A stretch of 64,000 bases of DNA from an uncultured Candidatus Saccharibacteria bacterium. GTDB lineage: Bacteria > Patescibacteriota > Minisyncoccia > Phycocordibacterales > SW-6-46-9. The DNA lies in assembly GCA_964534365.1 (NCBI GenBank), contig CAZHOI010000001.1, forward strand, positions 188,171 through 252,170, in the 5' to 3' direction. Below, in pieces: positions 892-9,514 of the stretch (positions are counted from its first letter, which is position 1; every line of letters begins with the position of its first letter). A program made the position numbers and the translations under genes. The notes beneath the pieces were generated by a model. It ran no database searches. It had not been told where the DNA came from and saw nothing but the letters and a program-made list of their open reading frames with translations.

Positions 892-1003
892 TAAGTAGAT
901 AGTACTTAAAAACTAAGGATACGGCTTAAACCAAAGCTATTAGTAAGGTTGCAAGAGAGACATCGGCCTACTCTTGTGTAAAACAGGTCGGCGGATATCA
1001 TTC

Positions 1004-1076
1004 GCTGCTTTAGCTCAGTTGGTAGAGCGCGTCCATGGTAAGGACGAGGTCAACAGTTCAATTCTGTTAAGCAGCT
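1004..1076 (+). tRNA. tRNA-Thr (anticodon GGT), intact element-borne copy
   Basis: Cloverleaf: acceptor GCTGCTT/AAGCAGC, D-arm GCTC-AGTTGGTA-GAGC, anticodon stem CGTCC/GGACG, loop ATGGTAA, T-arm AACAG-TTCAATT-CTGTT; no CCA encoded. Confidence 0.85.
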
Positions 1077-1114
1077 CAACTAAAAATCACAGGCTTGTAG
1101 GTAAACAACAAGCA

Positions 1115-2005
1115 ATGACAAACATACAAACACTGGCACGCCAGTTCTACGATTACTCTACGTTTATACGTGGGTACTCACCAATAACAATAAAGCGTTA
1201 TCGGCAAGTGATTAACTTTTATTGCAAGCACTTTGACATTATAAATATCGAAGACGTAACAGAGAAAAACGTTAAGCAACTATTCGTGTTCGGTAGGTCT
1301 GAACGTAGTTGGTCAGCTAATAGCTACATTATCTATCAAAAGTCACTACTAGTGTTTTTTAGATGGTGTGTAACTAATGGTTACATGGCAACTAACTTTG
1401 CTGAACAAATCGAACTACCAAAATTAAGTAAACGGTTACCACCCAAGCTCACAAAACAGTCTGCTCAACAATTGCTACTTGTTATACAAAATTATCCTTA
1501 TGACTATCCATATCTGCGATATCGTAATCATGCAATCTTCGCTACCTTTCTATTTGCTGGGCTACGTAAGAGCGAGTTATTAAATCTTAAACTTAGTGAC
1601 GTAGACTTAGAAAATATGACGATTATGGTACGCCAAGGCAAGGGCTCTAAAGACCGTATCATTCCAATAAATTACACATTAATGCAGATACTTGAAGAAT
1701 ACTTGGTACATCGTAAGAGATTACGCAAAACATGTCCTGAATTCTTCACTTCGCTTAATAGAAATTTAGGTTTAACTGCTAGTGGACTTAAGTGGGTTGT
1801 TAAAACAGTTAGAAAGGCTACTAAAATACAGTTTACAATCCATAAGTTGCGACATACGTTTGCAACATTAATGTTAGAGGGCGGTTGCGACATCTACTCC
1901 TTGTCCAAAATGATGGGTCATAGCGACATAAAAACAACAACTATATATCTAGCGGCAAGTGCTGAGCACTTGAGGTCGCAGGTTACAAAGCACCCACTAT
2001 CATAA
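1115..2005 (+). CDS. Tyrosine recombinase/integrase (phage integrase family)
   Basis: C-terminal catalytic motifs GLRKSEL (Arg), HKLRHTFAT (H-x-x-R) and GHSDIKTTTIYL (His/Tyr); the ATG at 1115 is downstream of the tRNA, and the ORF-track start at 974 overlaps the tRNA. Confidence 0.85.
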   Translation: MTNIQTLARQFYDYSTFIRGYSPITIKRYRQVINFYCKHFDIINIEDVTEKNVKQLFVFGRSERSWSANSYIIYQKSLLVFFRWCVTNGYMATNFAEQIELPKLSKRLPPKLTKQSAQQLLLVIQNYPYDYPYLRYRNHAIFATFLFAGLRKSELLNLKLSDVDLENMTIMVRQGKGSKDRIIPINYTLMQILEEYLVHRKRLRKTCPEFFTSLNRNLGLTASGLKWVVKTVRKATKIQFTIHKLRHTFATLMLEGGCDIYSLSKMMGHSDIKTTTIYLAASAEHLRSQVTKHPLS

Positions 2006-2049
2006 AAAAGTCACTTATAATAAGATATAATTTCTTAAAGATACTTATT

Positions 2050-3153
2050 ATGAGTAAGATAACTCAGATAAATAAAGAAAACTTCAAGATAGCACGTAAA
2101 AATGCTGGTTTTTCTACTGTCGAAGCATCAAAAAAAGTTACGACATCAAAAAAAAATCTGGTTGAAGAATGGGAAAAAGGTGGCTCTACCCCAACTTGGA
2201 AGCAAGCCGAGACATTGTCGCGTATTTATAACGTTCCATTAGTATTAATGATGTCTAATAAAAGTTTATCTGTACAAAGAGAAATTCCAGACTTCAGAAG
2301 TAATATTAAAGAAATGAGTCTGCCTTTAAAGAGATATATCAACGATTTACTAAAGACTCAAAAGTGGTTAGAGAATAAAATCCAACAAGCAGACGGTTTA
2401 CAAAATTCAATTCAAGGTATTGCTTCAGCAACAGACTCTGTAGATGAATTAAGTAAAATTATTGCTGATAAACTGCAACTAGAGCTCGAATATTTTTACA
2501 GTATTGGCAGTGCGAAGAATAAATTACTTTATTTGATTGAGCGACTCGAAGATAAAGATGTATTTGTCGGCAAAACTTTTGCTCATTATGATATTCCTGT
2601 TAAAGAAATGAGAGGTATGTTTATTTCCAATAAGTATGCACCTATGATTATATTGAATAGAAAAGATGCATACACTGCGCAGTTGTTTACACTCGTCCAT
2701 GAAATCACGCATCTTTTCCGAAATACAGAAGGTGTTTCAAATATAGAACTTGCTAGGAAAGAAACTTTAAAAGAAGAGCGCTTATGTAACGAAGTTGCCG
2801 CCAAGATACTAATGCCAGAAAGTTTTTTGCCGAAAAGTAAGGTTGACTTAAATCAGTTAAAACAGTTAGCAAATAAATTGACCGTCAGTCCAATAGCAAT
2901 GTTTTATAGACTAAAAAACTCAAATAGAATTGCAGGTGAAGTAGATAAGGTGTTGGAAAAAGTAAAGCTTGAGACAAAGCAAAACCTAGAAGCAAAAGAA
3001 GCCAAGGGTTCTACAGGCGGTAACTACTATAACAATACTAAAGACTCTAATGGCACATTGCTAAACAGGTTCGTATCCTCGCTTTACTTTAATCAAGAGA
3101 TTAATTTCGTCGAAGCCTCGAATATTTTAAGACTAGCTGTAAATAAAGTATGA
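2050..3153 (+). CDS. Fusion protein: N-terminal XRE-type HTH DNA-binding domain plus C-terminal ImmA/IrrE (M78, COG2856) zinc metallopeptidase domain
   Basis: N-terminus KENFKIARKNAGFSTVEASKKV is HTH_XRE-like; HEXXH motif in FTLVHEITHLF; sits next to the integrase as ImmR/ImmA do in ICEBs1. Confidence 0.8.
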   Translation: MSKITQINKENFKIARKNAGFSTVEASKKVTTSKKNLVEEWEKGGSTPTWKQAETLSRIYNVPLVLMMSNKSLSVQREIPDFRSNIKEMSLPLKRYINDLLKTQKWLENKIQQADGLQNSIQGIASATDSVDELSKIIADKLQLELEYFYSIGSAKNKLLYLIERLEDKDVFVGKTFAHYDIPVKEMRGMFISNKYAPMIILNRKDAYTAQLFTLVHEITHLFRNTEGVSNIELARKETLKEERLCNEVAAKILMPESFLPKSKVDLNQLKQLANKLTVSPIAMFYRLKNSNRIAGEVDKVLEKVKLETKQNLEAKEAKGSTGGNYYNNTKDSNGTLLNRFVSSLYFNQEINFVEASNILRLAVNKV

Positions 3154-3647
3154 ATACCGAACAAAAAGGTTTTAAGTACGTCATAGACACTAATTACTTA
3201 ATAGGTTTTTCAATATGGCTACCAGTGACTTATAATGAAAATTTTTGGAATAATCTTGAAATTTTGGTAGAGAGTGGAAAAGTACTAATTTTAGACGTAG
3301 TAGCTAATGAGGTTACACGTAAAGGTGACCTAAAAACATGGTGCAAGAAGTTAAAACAAAAAAATCTTTTAACTTCAATTGAAAACACCGACAGAAATAG
3401 AGCTATTGAAATAAACAATCTTTACCCAATGATTGATGAAACCTCAGGAAATTCAGAGGTTGATACATACATAGTTGCTTTTTCTGAAAGGACTTCTCAC
3501 ACATTACTGAGTAGAGAGGCTCCAAGGAAATCAAGTAACGTTCCGTTCAAAATTCCAGATGTATGTAATAAATTAAATATCAACACAATACGGTGGCCTG
3601 AAGATTTTTATAGTATCTTCCCCGAGTTATTTAGTACGTGCAATTAG
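3150..3647 (+). CDS. DUF4411-family PIN-like predicted nuclease
   Basis: YVIDTNYLIGF...NFWNNLE...VLILDVVANEV...DLKTWCKK matches the DUF4411 pattern (IDTN...FW...V.eE...W); ATGA start/stop overlap with the upstream ImmA-fusion gene. Confidence 0.7.
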   Translation: MNTEQKGFKYVIDTNYLIGFSIWLPVTYNENFWNNLEILVESGKVLILDVVANEVTRKGDLKTWCKKLKQKNLLTSIENTDRNRAIEINNLYPMIDETSGNSEVDTYIVAFSERTSHTLLSREAPRKSSNVPFKIPDVCNKLNINTIRWPEDFYSIFPELFSTCN

Positions 3648-4150
3648 ATGCAAGCTTTAGCAATTTCACCATTTTGATAAACAAACAAATTTACTCGATT
3701 CCCACTTGGAATAGCTGACCTGGCACTATCTTTTAAAACTTGGCAATAACTATCAATGGCAACTTGGTTAGCTTGAGACATGACATAAGCTTCCACAATT
3801 ACACCATCATCGCCTTTCTTTACAATCACATTAGACCAACGACCTTCTGCCCAGCCGTCTAAATCTGCTTGTAGCTCATCGATATCAGCTTGAGTTATAG
3901 CAATAGTAGCAGGTGCAGTATTACTTACATTAGGCGGCAAATTAGTAGCTGATTGTGTGAGACTATCATCGCGAGAGTCGTTATTTGAAGCTAAGGTTAT
4001 TGATATAACAATCACTACAAAAATGAACCAAAGAATTGTTTTGATTGGATGTCTAGCAATATACGAGCGCTGACTTGAACCACAATTGGGACACTTAGTC
4101 GCTTTCTTGTTAATCTGCTCCTTACATTCTCTACATTCCTTAGTATCCAT
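3644..4150 (-). CDS. Zinc-ribbon membrane protein (N-terminal CxxC...CxxC, one TM helix, extracytoplasmic domain)
   Basis: MDTKECRECKEQINKKATKCPNCG followed by hydrophobic ILWFIFVVIVISITLA; convergent with the DUF4411 gene and sharing overlapping stop codons; the longer alternative start is at 4207. Confidence 0.5.
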   Translation of the reverse strand: MDTKECRECKEQINKKATKCPNCGSSQRSYIARHPIKTILWFIFVVIVISITLASNNDSRDDSLTQSATNLPPNVSNTAPATIAITQADIDELQADLDGWAEGRWSNVIVKKGDDGVIVEAYVMSQANQVAIDSYCQVLKDSARSAIPSGNRVNLFVYQNGEIAKACI

Positions 4151-4574
4151 AATTAAATTGTTAGTTAGTAACTGGTGTAAGGATTGTAGAAAGCACAAAA
4201 CCCGCAACCAGGTGAGCCGAAGCTCATACGACAGTTTCCCATCGCAACATTAGACACGCCCTGATTACGGGGTTTCTGTGTCTAATGATTTGCAACCATG
4301 CCGACTCTATCGAGGAGGGTTAGGTTGGTAGGTCTATTTTACACCAAAATTTGTCCACTATCCTTGGAACACACAAAAACTAGTTAGCAGGACATTAGCA
4401 GGATAAAGTCAATCTAGAGGACTATTTAAAAACACAAAACAGTAGAAGTAACAGAGAAAGTTTTTAATTTTATGTACCTATTCTTATATGGCAAAAATAA
4501 TAAATAATAGTAAAAAAACGGTAGGAAAACCATAAATACAGTTTTTAACTAAACTAACATGGTACATTTTACAT

Positions 4575-5240
4575 ATGAGTAAGAAACAGCCTTTGAGTAT
4601 TTACTTTGAGAAGCTAGTAGTGAAAAACCAATTTTTAGATGATTTGAAAGAGCTGAACAAATTTCATCAATCAAAACTCAGCCAATTTCAGTCAAATGAG
4701 TTACGGTCAATGTTTGCAGATATTGGTCGAGGTAGAGAATATTGGAGTAAAGTATTTATGATATGTTCTAAGTACGGATTAAATGTTAATCAATTCAAAA
4801 TCATAATATCTAAACTAGCCACTGAAAGTAATTATGATTACAAAGACGATTTAGCGCACATAAGCAACATTAAACTATTAGACTTACAATCTATAAAGAA
4901 AATAATAAAGAAAAAGTTCAATTACAGTAATGAAGCGACATATATTGAAAACGACTATCGGGCGTTTATCGGCCTAAGTAATAATACCACTAAAGCAGAG
5001 CTAATAGATTACATTGAAAAGAATTATCATTCTAAGATTAAACCTTTAATCAGTAATAAAAAAGTAAGCTTTAAAAATCTACAATTAGAAAGAAACAGTG
5101 AGTTAAAGAATTTTGTTTGGAAAAACCAAGATATGCCTCATAAGGAATTGGCTAAAAAAGTCAGTAAAAAGTTCAATAAGATTTGTACTCCTGGATATAT
5201 TTCAAAAATGCTTTCAAGATTAAGAAAACAACGTGATTGA
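4575..5240 (+). CDS. Hypothetical Lys-rich protein with C-terminal HTH-like segment
   Basis: 221-aa ORF; C-terminus HKELAKKVSKKFNKICTPGYISKMLSRLRK resembles an HTH; its stop overlaps the ATG of the downstream recombinase (ATGA). Confidence 0.55.
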   Translation: MSKKQPLSIYFEKLVVKNQFLDDLKELNKFHQSKLSQFQSNELRSMFADIGRGREYWSKVFMICSKYGLNVNQFKIIISKLATESNYDYKDDLAHISNIKLLDLQSIKKIIKKKFNYSNEATYIENDYRAFIGLSNNTTKAELIDYIEKNYHSKIKPLISNKKVSFKNLQLERNSELKNFVWKNQDMPHKELAKKVSKKFNKICTPGYISKMLSRLRKQRD

Positions 5241-6247
5241 AATATGACAAAATAAACTCCAAAAATTGTCAGTATTTCACACAATTTATTTCATATAGTT
5301 GTAGCTACCAACTTATGAAAGACAAAGACCTATATAAATTATTCGATGAATATATAAAAGAATGTACCTATGTAGCTCGCATGCGACCAGCTACCTTAAC
5401 AGGATATAAACAGGTGTTTGATACATTTATGAAGATTATGCCTGAGGTAAAAAAGGTAGATGATTTAATACCTGAGCTAATTACAGAATTCTTTACGCGC
5501 ATGCAGACAAGGACTAGACATTTAAACAACGGTCAAACCCGTTCTGGAATGAAACAATCCTCTGTTGTTACTTATAGAAGCAAGCTACATTCGTTTTTCA
5601 AATGGTTAAACACTAAAAATATCTTAGAAACCAATCCTTTTGACATGTTACCTAAGCCTGAATGGCCAGTGCATGAAGACCAAAGAGCCTTAGATACAAA
5701 AGAAGTTAATCAAATATTGGGTGCGATTTTAAATAATGACAACGACTTTATAATTTGTAGAGATACAGCACTTTTCTATACTTTACTTTACACAGGTATT
5801 AGAAAAAACGAACTAATAAACTTGAGTCTCTCTGATATTGATTTATTAAACCTGAGTTTAAGGGTTAAAGCTGAAACTTCTAAATCCAAAAGAGAACGCA
5901 TAATACCGATTAATAAGGTTTTAGCTCATAAATTAACTACGTATCTAGCAATGCGCAACAAGTTTAGTATTAAATCTGAGAAACTCTGGGTCTCTCATCA
6001 ATCAAAACAAAAACTAACTTCACATGGTCTAAAACATATAGTGGCAAAGTATGTTCATCTATCAGGCGTTAAGTTTCACCTACATCGTTTTCGACATACG
6101 TTTGCGTGTCAGCTGCATTTGGCAGGTGCATCAATTACTGAGATACAGCGTTTATTGGGCCATAAGAAAGTAACAATGACTATGTTGTATCTAAGGTCGA
6201 TAGATACAAAAGATGCTACTTGTCATATTAACAAGCTAACTTATTAG
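5237..6247 (+). CDS. Tyrosine recombinase/integrase, second copy within the element
   Basis: GIRKNEL (Arg), HRFRHTFAC (H-x-x-R), GHKKVTMTMLYL (His/Tyr); alternative start ATG at 5315. Confidence 0.8.
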   Translation: MKYDKINSKNCQYFTQFISYSCSYQLMKDKDLYKLFDEYIKECTYVARMRPATLTGYKQVFDTFMKIMPEVKKVDDLIPELITEFFTRMQTRTRHLNNGQTRSGMKQSSVVTYRSKLHSFFKWLNTKNILETNPFDMLPKPEWPVHEDQRALDTKEVNQILGAILNNDNDFIICRDTALFYTLLYTGIRKNELINLSLSDIDLLNLSLRVKAETSKSKRERIIPINKVLAHKLTTYLAMRNKFSIKSEKLWVSHQSKQKLTSHGLKHIVAKYVHLSGVKFHLHRFRHTFACQLHLAGASITEIQRLLGHKKVTMTMLYLRSIDTKDATCHINKLTY

Positions 6248-6307
6248 CAGTAAAAAGCGTGCTCGCGTTCACTTTTCTACATAAGTCAATTAGTATATAG
6301 CCATAAT

Positions 6308-6988
6308 ATGGTTATGAGTGATATTAAAAAATTACTAATTGAAACAGTTAAAGAGAATGGAATTGATATAGCATCTGATACATTAAAAGTTGTTAGTACT
6401 GTTGCTAACATTTATGGCAAAGTAAAGCGAACTCGAATTAAGATGTTCCTTAATTGCATTATAAGCTTTGTGAATGAGTTAACAGCCGAAGATAAAGAGC
6501 TTTTCATAGAATATGTAAACAGTGATGAAGGTCGGCAATTACTAACTGACTTTATAGATAGCGCATTACGCGTCTCAAATACAATACCGATGAGCGCTTT
6601 AGCATTACTTTTTGCTGACTATAACAGTATGGAATATGGCTTAAATGCCAAATACCATGGAATACGTGTACTTCCGAAGATGAATAATAAGGACGCTATT
6701 TTGTACTCTAAACTTATATCCGGAAGTTCAATATATGAAAATGCTCTAACAGAAATTGATAGTGATGAAACAGTCCCTTATGACACATATATCACATCTC
6801 TTCCCGTAAACGTACAAACTAAGAAATTGTTTATAGATATCAAAAAATTACAAAGCGAAGGCATTATATTAGATGACCCATTCAACGCTAGGATGGCAGG
6901 TGAAGAACTAACAATTGTTTACGGTCTTTCCGATAAAATGTATAGATTAGGGCGGGTGATAAGTATAGCAATTGAGATTAGTAATTAA
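6308..6988 (+). CDS. Hypothetical protein, element cargo
   Basis: 226-aa ORF with coding-like composition and no recognisable motifs. Confidence 0.5.
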   Translation: MVMSDIKKLLIETVKENGIDIASDTLKVVSTVANIYGKVKRTRIKMFLNCIISFVNELTAEDKELFIEYVNSDEGRQLLTDFIDSALRVSNTIPMSALALLFADYNSMEYGLNAKYHGIRVLPKMNNKDAILYSKLISGSSIYENALTEIDSDETVPYDTYITSLPVNVQTKKLFIDIKKLQSEGIILDDPFNARMAGEELTIVYGLSDKMYRLGRVISIAIEISN

Positions 6989-7177
6989 TTATTGATGGCA
7001 ACTTCTGTTATAATGATAGTACTGGGTTACAGCATTAATCAGTAAAAAACTAATAGCCTGTGATTGAGGACATTGGTTGTTAAATAGGTAGTTACATCTG
7101 CTTAGTTAAAACAGCTGATTTGCTCACAAAACCCTTATTTATAGCTCCCTTTTGTCGGAAAGGCCTATGTCCACTTA

Positions 7178-7222
7178 ATGGTAAGGATGAGGTCGACAGT
7201 TCAATTCTGTCAGGCAGCTCCA
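7178..7222 (+). pseudogene. 3' half of the disrupted host tRNA-Thr(GGT), from the anticodon loop through CCA
   Basis: ATGGTAA-GGATG-AGGTC-GACAG-TTCAATT-CTGTC-AGGCAGC-T-CCA; GGATG pairs CATCC and AGGCAGC pairs GCTGCCT of the 854-891 half; the ORF 7120-7317 over this region is spurious. Confidence 0.7.
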
Positions 7223-7276: not shown

Positions 7277-9514
7277 TTAATCGAAAAAATCGTCGTCGGA
7301 AATATCAGATTCGCTAGCTTCAGTTGATAGATCACTGCCGTCATCAGTGCGGATATAGACCACTGATGGTCCGCAGCTGGTTGCTTCAGTACCAACAGCA
7401 GTTTGAGTTACAACAGCACTGTAATTGGAATCAATACAACCAAAGAAATCTGGATTAGGTAGTGGTAATTGCACTAGGAATTCGCTGTTAGCTGCATTAC
7501 ATGTTGCCTGAACTCCTGTATTAGTACTGACAAAATCACGCAATTCTTGCACCGCATCACTGGCACAAAAATTGTTGAAACTACCCTCATTATCGCGATA
7601 AACCGATGCATCACTGCCTAACAAACGCAGACGATCCATAATTACCACCTCTTCACCAGGACCTAATTGTTGCAAAATGGAAATAATTTCATCTGATGGA
7701 ACCACGTTTGGTGGAGCAGTTATGGCTGATCCTGTGTAATCGTAATCAAACGAAATATTGATATTGCTGGCTCCAGATTGGTGAATTAATTGTGCGTCAA
7801 CCTCTTGAATCAGTCGTGTATTTCGGTCGATTTGCGCCTGTCCTTCAACTGATAACAAACCACTATAATCAAACATATCATTAAAGAAAGCGGTGTTTTG
7901 CGGGATGCGCGAGTTAAAACTATCAACATCAAAACTAAAATCAAACATATCCACTGCACCACTGGCACCATCTATGGTATTTTTATATTCAAATTGTAAA
8001 ACATCACTGTTATAAAGGTCGGTTAAAGAACTGGATACAGCGTTTACCACATCAGATAAATTAGTAGGGGGATTTCCTGACAATAGCGACAGCACTGACG
8101 ACACGTCACCGTCGCCCTTGATTTCGAACCATTCATTGGGGACCTGATCCAGTGGACTTACGTTTGGTAGTTCCCTGAATTTGGCAAATGACCGGCTGCC
8201 ATCATAGGCAAAGTCCAGCGTAATCTCGCCTAAACTAGCACTAAACCCATTTTTATTTGATTGAGTGTTTACCAAACCCCTTACATTGATTGGCAATGTA
8301 GTAGAATTGGCAACCGCTGCAACGGCCGGCGGGGTGTCGGCAGTAGGATTATTAATATTAAGCGGCAATTCACCTGAGGCAGCATATGAAACATATTGCA
8401 CCGTATCAAATGCACTTATGATTTGGTCCGGGGAATAATCAGGGGTAGTACCAATTAATCGCGGTAGAAAAGTTGCGGCGGCAGCGGCGAGGGCAACCAG
8501 AAGCAATATAGCAATCACCAGAATAGTTATTTTTTTATTTTTTGATTTATCGGTCGATTGTGATTGAAGTTTAGCTTTAGGATTGGCATTTAAAGACTGA
8601 CGGGGCAATCTAGCAGATTGTTTCATCGTATTACCTTTAACCGATGGTCGGTAAACTAAACCTGAGTTTTCGGTTTGAGTCGGTTTATTTTGCTCAGGTT
8701 GAATACGCATTTGGTCATTTGATTCACGACTATCAGACAAAGCTCGCTTCTTATCCGCAGAGGCCGCAGAGACCAATTTATTTGGTGATTGACCAGGCTC
8801 TTCCCCTTTGCCTAACGAACTATTGTCATCAGTCGATTTATTTAACTGCCAATCAGCTGCGCGGCGATATTTGATATTACTGGCTGATTTAGGTTCAGCA
8901 GTATTAGGTGATCCTAATACATCAATAGGAGTTGCGGCAGCAGAACGCTGGACAGGACTCGTATTAAATTGCTCTGGCTGTTTTCCCTGCTCTGTTGCGG
9001 GGGCTTGATTGGTTCGATTAGTTTGGGACTTATTATCTCTGTTTTGATTTAATCCTTCTACCCTAGTTACTGAATCAGTATTATTGCCAGTATCATTTAG
9101 AGTAATATTATCCCCTTGATTAATAGTAGATTGTTGTAGCTTTTGCCTGAGTTGTTGCAGATTTTCAGCTGCATTGGATCCAGTACTTGATTGGACCCCG
9201 GACTGTGTCGCATTACTTTTATCATTGCTATCGGGACCACTAGTGTCGGCGGTCGAGTCATCAGCAGATTTTTTATTCCCTGTAGCCGAATTATCTGAAT
9301 TATCACCAACTTCAGCTGAACCAGTTCTGGATTGATCAGAGGCCAGATTATCTGAGGTGTCATTTTCGCTAGCAACGGTATCAACCACTCCAAACGCTTC
9401 ATTAATATCATCACCGGTCCAACCGGCTTGCAGCAGGGTCATTTTTATCGAATTTTTATCCACTCCGCGGTTTTTTTGATATTCAACGTAGCGCAATAAT
9501 TCTTCGGTAACCAT
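7277..9514 (-). CDS. Membrane-anchored protein: small cytoplasmic N-domain, low-complexity S/T/N/Q linker, one TM helix, large extracytoplasmic domain
   Basis: 745-aa ORF; TM segment ITILVIAILLLVALAAAAATFLP; acidic C-terminus. Confidence 0.6.
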   Translation of the reverse strand: MVTEELLRYVEYQKNRGVDKNSIKMTLLQAGWTGDDINEAFGVVDTVASENDTSDNLASDQSRTGSAEVGDNSDNSATGNKKSADDSTADTSGPDSNDKSNATQSGVQSSTGSNAAENLQQLRQKLQQSTINQGDNITLNDTGNNTDSVTRVEGLNQNRDNKSQTNRTNQAPATEQGKQPEQFNTSPVQRSAAATPIDVLGSPNTAEPKSASNIKYRRAADWQLNKSTDDNSSLGKGEEPGQSPNKLVSAASADKKRALSDSRESNDQMRIQPEQNKPTQTENSGLVYRPSVKGNTMKQSARLPRQSLNANPKAKLQSQSTDKSKNKKITILVIAILLLVALAAAAATFLPRLIGTTPDYSPDQIISAFDTVQYVSYAASGELPLNINNPTADTPPAVAAVANSTTLPINVRGLVNTQSNKNGFSASLGEITLDFAYDGSRSFAKFRELPNVSPLDQVPNEWFEIKGDGDVSSVLSLLSGNPPTNLSDVVNAVSSSLTDLYNSDVLQFEYKNTIDGASGAVDMFDFSFDVDSFNSRIPQNTAFFNDMFDYSGLLSVEGQAQIDRNTRLIQEVDAQLIHQSGASNINISFDYDYTGSAITAPPNVVPSDEIISILQQLGPGEEVVIMDRLRLLGSDASVYRDNEGSFNNFCASDAVQELRDFVSTNTGVQATCNAANSEFLVQLPLPNPDFFGCIDSNYSAVVTQTAVGTEATSCGPSVVYIRTDDGSDLSTEASESDISDDDFFD

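Follow-up and report, generated by a model that had tools for sequence, protein, structure and literature searches.

A tRNA-replacing integrative element with a Xer-like recombinase gene near each end in a Saccharibacteria genome

Our study reports on a 6,286-bp integrative element in the genome of an uncultured Candidatus Saccharibacteria bacterium, located at positions 892-7177 of a 64,000-nt stretch of contig CAZHOI010000001.1 (assembly GCA_964534365.1, positions 188,171 to 252,170), which we call the window. The element has entered the anticodon loop of a host tRNA-Thr(GGT) gene by site-specific recombination and has left that gene as two halves; it brings a complete tRNA-Thr(GGT) gene in its place and encodes a Xer-like tyrosine recombinase near each end, Int1 on the left and Int2 on the right. 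The region 4575-6988, which an earlier sequence-only reading had singled out for its second recombinase, is the right part of this element. We hold it to be very likely that this is a single element with a conserved recombinase pair. The account that best explains the data as a whole, a single tRNA-replacing element whose end-placed recombinases are partners and would act together, seems to us probable. The features on which this account turns are as follows.

854-891, + strand: displaced 5′ half of the host tRNA-Thr(GGT) gene (tRNA positions 1-38); its 3′ end is the crossover core ATGGTAA (885-891), forming attL; direct repeat with 1004-1041.
892-1003, + strand: left (P′) arm, the 112-nt spacer from the core to the element tRNA; it has the only exact AAACAGGTC of the 64-kb window (981-989).
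1004-1077, + strand: complete element-borne tRNA-Thr(GGT) gene, replacing the split host gene (ARAGORN; Rfam tRNA model, 67.1 bits).
1115-2005, + strand: Int1, left-end Xer-like tyrosine recombinase, 296 amino acids (aa) (PF00589, E 2.7e-31).
5315-6247, + strand: Int2, right-end Xer-like tyrosine recombinase, 310 aa (PF00589, E 5.7e-31; start moved from 5237 to 5315).
6989-7177, + strand: right (P) arm, 189 nt, homologous to the arm after Int2 in 12 other elements (13 with the window).
7178-7222, + strand: displaced 3′ half of the host tRNA-Thr(GGT) gene (positions 32-76, including CCA), opening with the core ATGGTAA (7178-7184), forming attR.

The limits of the element are set by the two pieces of the host tRNA gene, which overlap in the 7-nt anticodon loop only and share the core ATGGTAA at both junctions. 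The host halves pair perfectly with each other in the acceptor stem (GCTGCCT/AGGCAGC) and the anticodon stem (CATCC/GGATG). The element tRNA, which lies 112 nt inside the left end and 38 nt upstream of Int1, is compensated within itself through different stems (GCTGCTT/AAGCAGC and CGTCC/GGACG). These compensatory differences show that both halves come from a single former gene and that the internal tRNA is no hybrid; joining the host 5′ half to the element 3′ half would give two mispairs in the window. ARAGORN run on the rejoined host halves returns tRNA-Thr(GGT), and an empty site is provided by the metagenome contig L092, in which the window's left-flank gene, in diverged form, is followed by an intact tRNA gene identical to the 5′ half at 38/38 positions and to the 3′ half at 43/43. 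The sequence that follows the host 5′ half (854-891) is not tRNA, and no island-borne fragment is fused there to regenerate the gene. The element also differs in GC content (34.3%, against 41.1% in the window downstream of it). The proposal that both recombinase genes sit in one 6.3-kb element is thus borne out by its ends. As deduced from the host halves, the repaired attB reads ...GAGCGCATCC ATGGTAA GGATGAGGTCGAC..., and as deduced from the element ends the attP junction reads ...CCTATGTCCACTTA ATGGTAA TAAGTAGATAGTAC...; the deduced order in the circular form is Int2, P arm, ATGGTAA, P′ arm, tRNA, Int1, in which the two recombinase genes flank attP.

Between the recombinases no second att copy or tRNA fragment was found, either by local alignment of 3600-4620 to both ends or by a search for ATGGTA; the sequence-only reading had pointed to 3.6-5.2 kb as a place where such ATGGTAA-like sites or tRNA fragments might lie, and the search yielded only a chance 6-mer, ATGGTA, at 4559. 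No second recombination site is visible in the window. An arrangement in which two different element types had hit one tRNA from opposite sides was considered and rejected, since one core stands at both junctions and the complete tRNA has Int2 on its right-hand side.

Int1 and Int2 share 28% identity, and their genes are 3.3 kb apart. Both match the phage integrase family, and the catalytic residues R163, K190, H257, R260, H283 and Y292 are invariant in an alignment that includes the two (alignment A1), so the two complete catalytic motifs first read from the letters stand. Both proteins are of the simple Xer type, about 300 aa long and without an arm-binding domain, and the closest solved relatives of both are XerD and XerA. 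They do not reach the cut-offs of the NCBIfam models for XerC and XerD (TIGR02224/TIGR02225; 173/168 bits for Int1 and 125/131 for Int2, cut-offs 335/330) or for integron integrases (TIGR02249 or NF011946; 96 bits for Int1 and 45 for Int2, cut-off 265). Plasmid and phage collections held no relative of Int1 above about 34% identity, and a scan of IMG/VR with Int1 gave weak matches only. Public gene calls shorten Int1 to 206 aa (start at window position 1385; 6071-6691 in L001, one of the loci that we number with L); the full 296-aa open reading frame (ORF) has an N-terminal SAM-like domain and aligns with its relatives from end to end.

The start of Int2 differs from the one first proposed. 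A start at TTG 5237 was rejected: the N-termini of homologues and the gene calls favour ATG 5315, which most likely begins the gene. Some 120 homologues, each roughly 310 aa long, align over 97-100% of the 310-aa product, with most N-termini near its start, and the gene call in public assemblies is this same product (P0001, 100% identical). The gene upstream, ORF221, had been described as overlapping the integrase start in an ATGA and as translationally coupled to it. Bases 5237-5240 read TTGA, and they would form an overlap only if Int2 began at TTG 5237. From the ORF221 stop to ATG 5315 there is a gap of 74 nt, and with this likely start the proposed coupling falls away.

The pairing of the two recombinases is not peculiar to the window. 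A profile of Int2 homologues was used to fetch 80 genomic loci, and an Int1-type gene (38-69% identical to Int1) lies within 10 kb in 48 of them. The eight elements that can be followed from end to end all have Int1 on the left and Int2 on the right. The window layout recurs in L015, L017, L063, L066 and L080, each with its own compensated host stems, and the shared order is host 5′ half, a spacer of ~110 nt, tRNA-Thr(GGT), Int1, cargo, Int2, an arm of ~190 nt and host 3′ half. The same recombinase layout accompanies classical repair by a 3′ fragment in tRNA-Lys(TTT) in L064 (complete) and in L058 and L098 (right ends only), and L072 is a tandem array of such elements. In eight further loci from the Candidate Phyla Radiation (CPR), with no Int1 in the available flank, a right arm, the core and the displaced 3′ half of a tRNA gene come after Int2 in every case. 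Every cargo ORF differs from element to element, and nothing between the recombinases is common to them. In L008, at about 3120-3260, two successive tRNA-Thr 3′ halves follow Int2, which looks like the trace of repeated insertions and losses at one site. The anticodon loop of the element tRNA-Thr(GGT) in four loci carries a group-I-intron-like insert after ATGGT (L063 at about 2736-3030, L024 from about 7356 onward, L073 at about 12108 on the minus strand, L059 at about 14892); for L063, Rfam gave no group I intron match at the gathering threshold. Introns at position 36/37 of Patescibacteria tRNA-Thr(GGU) have been listed (PMC13011429).

The arms and the core suggest how the two proteins might meet. 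In the alignment of right arms (A4) the conserved blocks are TAAACAGGTCATC, ATTTTAGCC and GGAAAAGnCCTCTA, followed by the core, and the window version runs TAAATAGGTAG ... CGGAAAGGCCTATG. The arms of 49 loci show a ~21-fold enrichment of the motif ACAGG[TC]C, which appears to resemble tRNA positions 42-48, (G)AGGTC; the count of the motif in the left arm of the window is low. The attP core lies inside an imperfect inverted repeat, CCACTTA ATGGTAA TAAGTAG. Tyrosine recombinases exchange strands over an overlap of 6-8 bp between inverted binding sites, a geometry that the anticodon stem-loop has, and Xer-type recombinases often work in pairs, as XerC and XerD do. We propose that Int2 is the right-end partner of Int1 and not a second integration module, and that both would act on one crossover site, where they would probably form a heteromeric complex as XerC/XerD do at dif; for such joint action, suggested by analogy, we see the scales as level. 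The binding sites would be the anticodon stem arms together with the (A/G)NAGGTC-type motifs. Bringing a whole tRNA instead of a 3′ fragment would free the element from the need for stems that match the host 5′ half and would avoid mismatched hybrid stems.

The remaining ORFs of the right part are one on either side of Int2, both present as first read.

4575-5240, + strand: ORF221, a basic helical protein of 221 aa with a conserved C-terminus resembling a helix-turn-helix (HTH); 43 remote homologues.
6308-6988, + strand: ORF226, an acidic orphan of 226 aa occupying the cargo slot that separates Int2 from the right arm.

ORF221 had been described as a Lys-rich protein with an HTH-like tail. The composition holds (15.8% Lys, isoelectric point 9.8), and the family alignment shows that the conserved part is the C-terminal one, with the look of an HTH; Pfam, HTH models included, matched neither ORF221 nor any of 30 relatives, and searching the PDB with a profile of the family returned nothing meaningful. 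A word-indexed homology search found only ORF221 itself, and a full HMMER search found the 43 remote relatives, of about 240 aa (best E value 1.9e-14). No sequence match to any Xis or recombination directionality factor (RDF) family was obtained. The suggested pairing of a regulator-type gene with the second recombinase gains support from gene order: a recombinase gene lies directly downstream of the ORF221-family gene in 6/7 informative contexts, a tyrosine recombinase in the window, L045, the P0123 contig, L089 and L098 and a large serine recombinase in L099, with none in L091. In the loci other than the window, the distance to the tyrosine recombinase gene is 62-85 nt. The L098 locus mirrors the right end of the window, with a zinc-ribbon relative, an ORF221-like gene, Int2, a RelA/SpoT-like cargo gene, the arm and a tRNA-Lys 3′ half. 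In L099 (5001-7632) the gene that follows the family member encodes a serine recombinase of 593 aa, and the element also has a type I restriction-modification system; this context indicates that the family is not bound to tyrosine recombinases. Judging by gene order, ORF221 may be a DNA-binding accessory or regulatory protein of the recombinase downstream, for example a directionality factor or a regulator of its expression; the case for an accessory factor and the case against it seem to us about equal. The ORF221 family itself is a new recombinase-associated and apparently HTH-bearing protein family.

ORF226 is an orphan, as had been said: among 5.8 billion proteins a word-indexed search found only a self-match, and there was no Pfam, PHROG, NCBIfam or PADLOC match. 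Single-sequence AlphaFold2 models were poor, with a predicted local distance difference test (pLDDT) score of 46 for ORF226, which is unusable, and of 53 for the other model. In L098 this slot is taken by a RelA/SpoT-like gene and in L089 by one for a DUF4238 protein, and we suggest that ORF226 would be variable cargo placed between Int2 and the right arm.

The rest of the cargo lies between Int1 and ORF221.

2050-3153, + strand: protein with HTH and M78 peptidase domains (RmrA-like; PADLOC RmrA models, E 5.7e-16).
3150-3647, + strand: DUF4411 protein, its gene overlapping that of the HTH/M78 peptidase protein.
3644-4150, - strand: zinc-ribbon protein with one transmembrane segment, 168 aa according to gene callers (the mechanical ORF runs to 4207).
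4213-4326, - strand: LOOT RNA (RF03000; 64.6 bits, gathering score 46.4; full model, positions 1-121), immediately 5′ of the zinc-ribbon gene.
Other LOOT RNA copies: L017 7331-7448; L063 9098-9220; L064 6896-7017; L080 9263-9375.

The HTH/M78 peptidase and DUF4411 pair (2050-3647) looks like a toxin-antitoxin or defence-type module and has no counterpart in related elements. The zinc-ribbon gene has a distant relative upstream of the ORF221-like gene in L098. In the window, a promoter-like site (4494-4467) precedes the LOOT RNA, and a terminator-like hairpin (4213-4200) lies at the 3′ end of the RNA. This RNA was found inside the cargo of 5/10 CPR elements scanned and nowhere outside them, and downstream of each copy, within about 40-70 nt, comes a gene in the same direction that encodes a small membrane protein. 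The LOOT RNA may be a small RNA of mobile elements or a leader for surface-protein cargo. Outside the element, the gene adjoining its right end (7277-9514, - strand) encodes a protein of 745 aa with a long Ser/Asn/Gln/Asp-rich low-complexity N-terminal part, one transmembrane segment and no Pfam match.

In Bacteroidota the pair occurs in another form. The common layout there is Int2, about 380 nt, then Int1, and the gap holds an attP-like site, in which the core is accompanied by a tRNA, or the 3′ half of one, that belongs to the element and is of Thr, Lys, Ile or Ala type. Across genera this tRNA fragment is near-identical, from which we take it to be element-borne. Flavobacterial modules carry near-identical tRNA-Ala(TGC)-like 3′ halves or tRNA-Ile(GAT) pieces in this gap (L010, L019, L025, L032, L048, L052, L056, L078; L016, L038, L043). 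In many bacteria tRNA-Ala(TGC) and tRNA-Ile(GAT) lie in the spacer of the rRNA operon, which would make an unusual target. The surrounding DNA resembles integrative and conjugative elements (ICEs), with genes for TraG/TrwB, ArdC, RepO and UvrD (L009-L082 loci, for example L086 10001-12230 and L093 10001-16918). Tandem arrays are unlikely as the general cause of this layout, which dominates, has an element-borne tRNA fragment in its gap and has no partner halves within 10 kb; the arrangement is explained only in part.

Other readings of the window have to be weighed against a single element with partnered recombinases. The sequence-only reading had offered two separate modules in tandem or nested, in which an older Int1 element and a newer ORF221-Int2-ORF226 element would each have att sites of their own. 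The low identity of Int1 and Int2, a GC-richer intergenic stretch between the two halves and the tandem arrays of such elements in L072 and L008 would fit it, but the GC-richer stretch is the LOOT RNA, the chance ATGGTA stands in place of any internal core with a tRNA fragment, and the elements share a homologous arm on the Int2 side, which directly adjoins the host 3′ half. Moreover, Int1 is on the left and Int2 on the right within one split tRNA in all eight bounded elements, whatever the cargo. That reading had itself held that a recurrent recombinase pair in homologous elements would argue against nesting; since the pair does recur in this way, a nested or tandem origin is refuted for the window, and we regard it as extremely improbable. 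We also think it unlikely that the two recombinases divide their labour, with one of them (most likely Int1, which is better conserved and adjoins the tRNA) integrating and excising alone and Int2 serving multimer resolution, inversion or DNA capture at the same or a nearby site. Several observations that count against joint action point this way. In Bacteroidota the pair mostly flanks an attP-like site that stands unrecombined within ICE-like DNA, and one Mucilaginibacter ICE carries at its end a large serine recombinase gene beside a Mg-chelatase-like (comM-type) gene, which would explain the unrecombined tyrosine-recombinase site there; the Int1/Int2 module may have another role in such an ICE. 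The pair is not strictly fixed, for Int1 and an Int2-type gene are convergent in L033 and L073, and in L089 the recombinase beside the ORF221-like gene is also convergent with Int1, shares only 26% identity with either recombinase and is of a different clade. Int2 is the more divergent protein, with a median pairwise identity of 42% against 57% for Int1. Set against these points, Int2 in CPR elements is always ~190 nt from the crossover core on a conserved arm, the window offers no second site at which it could act, and both proteins belong to the simple type, lacking an arm-binding domain, that often acts in pairs.

Other points also count against partnered recombinases in a mobile element. 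The loci were ascertained through Int2, and elements with Int1 only lie outside the sample; in favour of a conserved pair, the pairwise identities of Int1 and Int2 co-vary over 49 loci (r = 0.41, a value reached in 0/2000 permutations), a correlation that could partly mirror host phylogeny. For a directionality factor ORF221 is large, and no homology to one was detected. All seven contigs of this population are in the integrated state and carry the element at the same place, with no excised circle, and the attP junction was not found in IMG/VR. In addition, the core-proximal half-site of the window, TAAGTAGATA, departs from the TAAACAGGTC of its relatives, and with this deviant half-site the present copy may be impaired. 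The uniform occupancy, the odd half-site and the low motif count of the left arm would suit a fixed and decaying relic, its recombinases and ORF221 inactive and the element kept because its tRNA is needed. We think this quite improbable, however: all ORFs are intact and both catalytic sets complete, the low GC content is still distinct, and the host halves still match an intact gene elsewhere at 100% identity, a sign of recent insertion. The preferred explanation thus remains a single tRNA-replacing element with a recombinase partner at each end.

A comparison with known systems places the element near several of them. P22- and P4-type integration are classical examples of tRNA targeting. In classical tRNA islands and prophages a tyrosine recombinase puts a circular element into a tRNA gene, with the crossover in the 7-nt anticodon loop between symmetric stems, and a displaced fragment marks an end of the island; here too the target tRNA is split and the displaced 3′ half (7178-7222) lies at the element end, as in the tRNA-integrating genomic islands mapped by Islander (PMC4383910). 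The element differs from these in having two recombinase genes, one per end, where they have a single integrase beside one att site, and in the displacement of both target halves, with a complete tRNA replacing the gene where they repair it by a fused fragment. Like XerC/XerD at dif and the integrative mobile elements exploiting Xer (IMEXs), it would use a pair of simple Xer-like paralogues of ~300 aa on one short-core site. Unlike XerC/XerD, its genes are on a mobile element and flank attP, its target is a tRNA anticodon loop and not dif, and its scores are far below the family cut-offs; both genes belong to an insertion that the intact site of L092 lacks, and not to a chromosomal housekeeping locus.

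A fixed set of two or more tyrosine recombinases is also encoded by mobile elements such as Tn554 (TnpA/TnpB/TnpC) and the RIT ("recombinase in trio") elements (in part PMC8138268). Their genes are adjacent or overlapping at one place and their targets differ, and RIT has three of them, whereas the present element has two recombinase genes only, 3.3 kb apart at opposite ends. Judged from gene sizes and layout, Tn554, with a tnpB of about 630 aa and adjacent tnpA/B/C, also differs from separated genes for 296 and 310 aa. Smyshlyaev et al. (2021; PMC8138268) described a "Cand" subgroup of Xer-related recombinases from candidate phyla and suggested that simple recombinases of this kind, each specific to a class, may take the place of Xer. 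By that description Int1 and Int2 resemble this subgroup as Xer-like recombinases from CPR bacteria, but their genes are on an inserted element and occur in Bacteroidota too. Finally, ORF221 recalls the RDFs (Xis and RdfS-type winged HTH proteins; PMC11963761), being basic, apparently HTH-bearing and encoded next to a recombinase gene; it differs in its 221 aa against about 60-120 aa, in lacking a family match and in having a relative that precedes a large serine recombinase. In the literature searched, which left subscription-only papers outside, we found no description of a two-recombinase, tRNA-replacing design.

Our data point, tentatively, to a family of elements that crosses phyla (CPR/Patescibacteria, Bacteroidota and some metagenome-assembled genomes labelled Proteobacteria), although on balance we would not yet call this broad picture likely. 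In such a family an obligate heteromeric Xer-like pair around attP would be aimed at tRNA anticodon loops, one subclass would destroy its target tRNA and bring a replacement, proteins of the ORF221 type would form a new class of accessory factors, and LOOT RNA would be a recurrent component of the CPR elements. Textbook tRNA integration, the standard route of genomic islands, relies on one integrase and on an island-borne fragment that repairs the target. Here a conserved pair of simple Xer-type recombinases surrounds attP, and in one subclass the target tRNA is replaced, not repaired. If both proteins are needed, the element would encode a heteromeric integrase, which bears on the choice of site, on the order of strand exchange and on a possible use as an integration tool. 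The ORF221 family is defined as a new set of recombinase-associated proteins, and the orphan LOOT RNA is placed in the context of mobile elements. Elements of this kind could be given wrong limits by island-finding software built to expect a single integrase with a single displaced fragment, and some Xer-like recombinases of CPR bacteria that might otherwise be taken for housekeeping Xer gain a mobile-element reading. Independence from the stems of the host tRNA, if it is real, could explain the spread of these elements across phyla.

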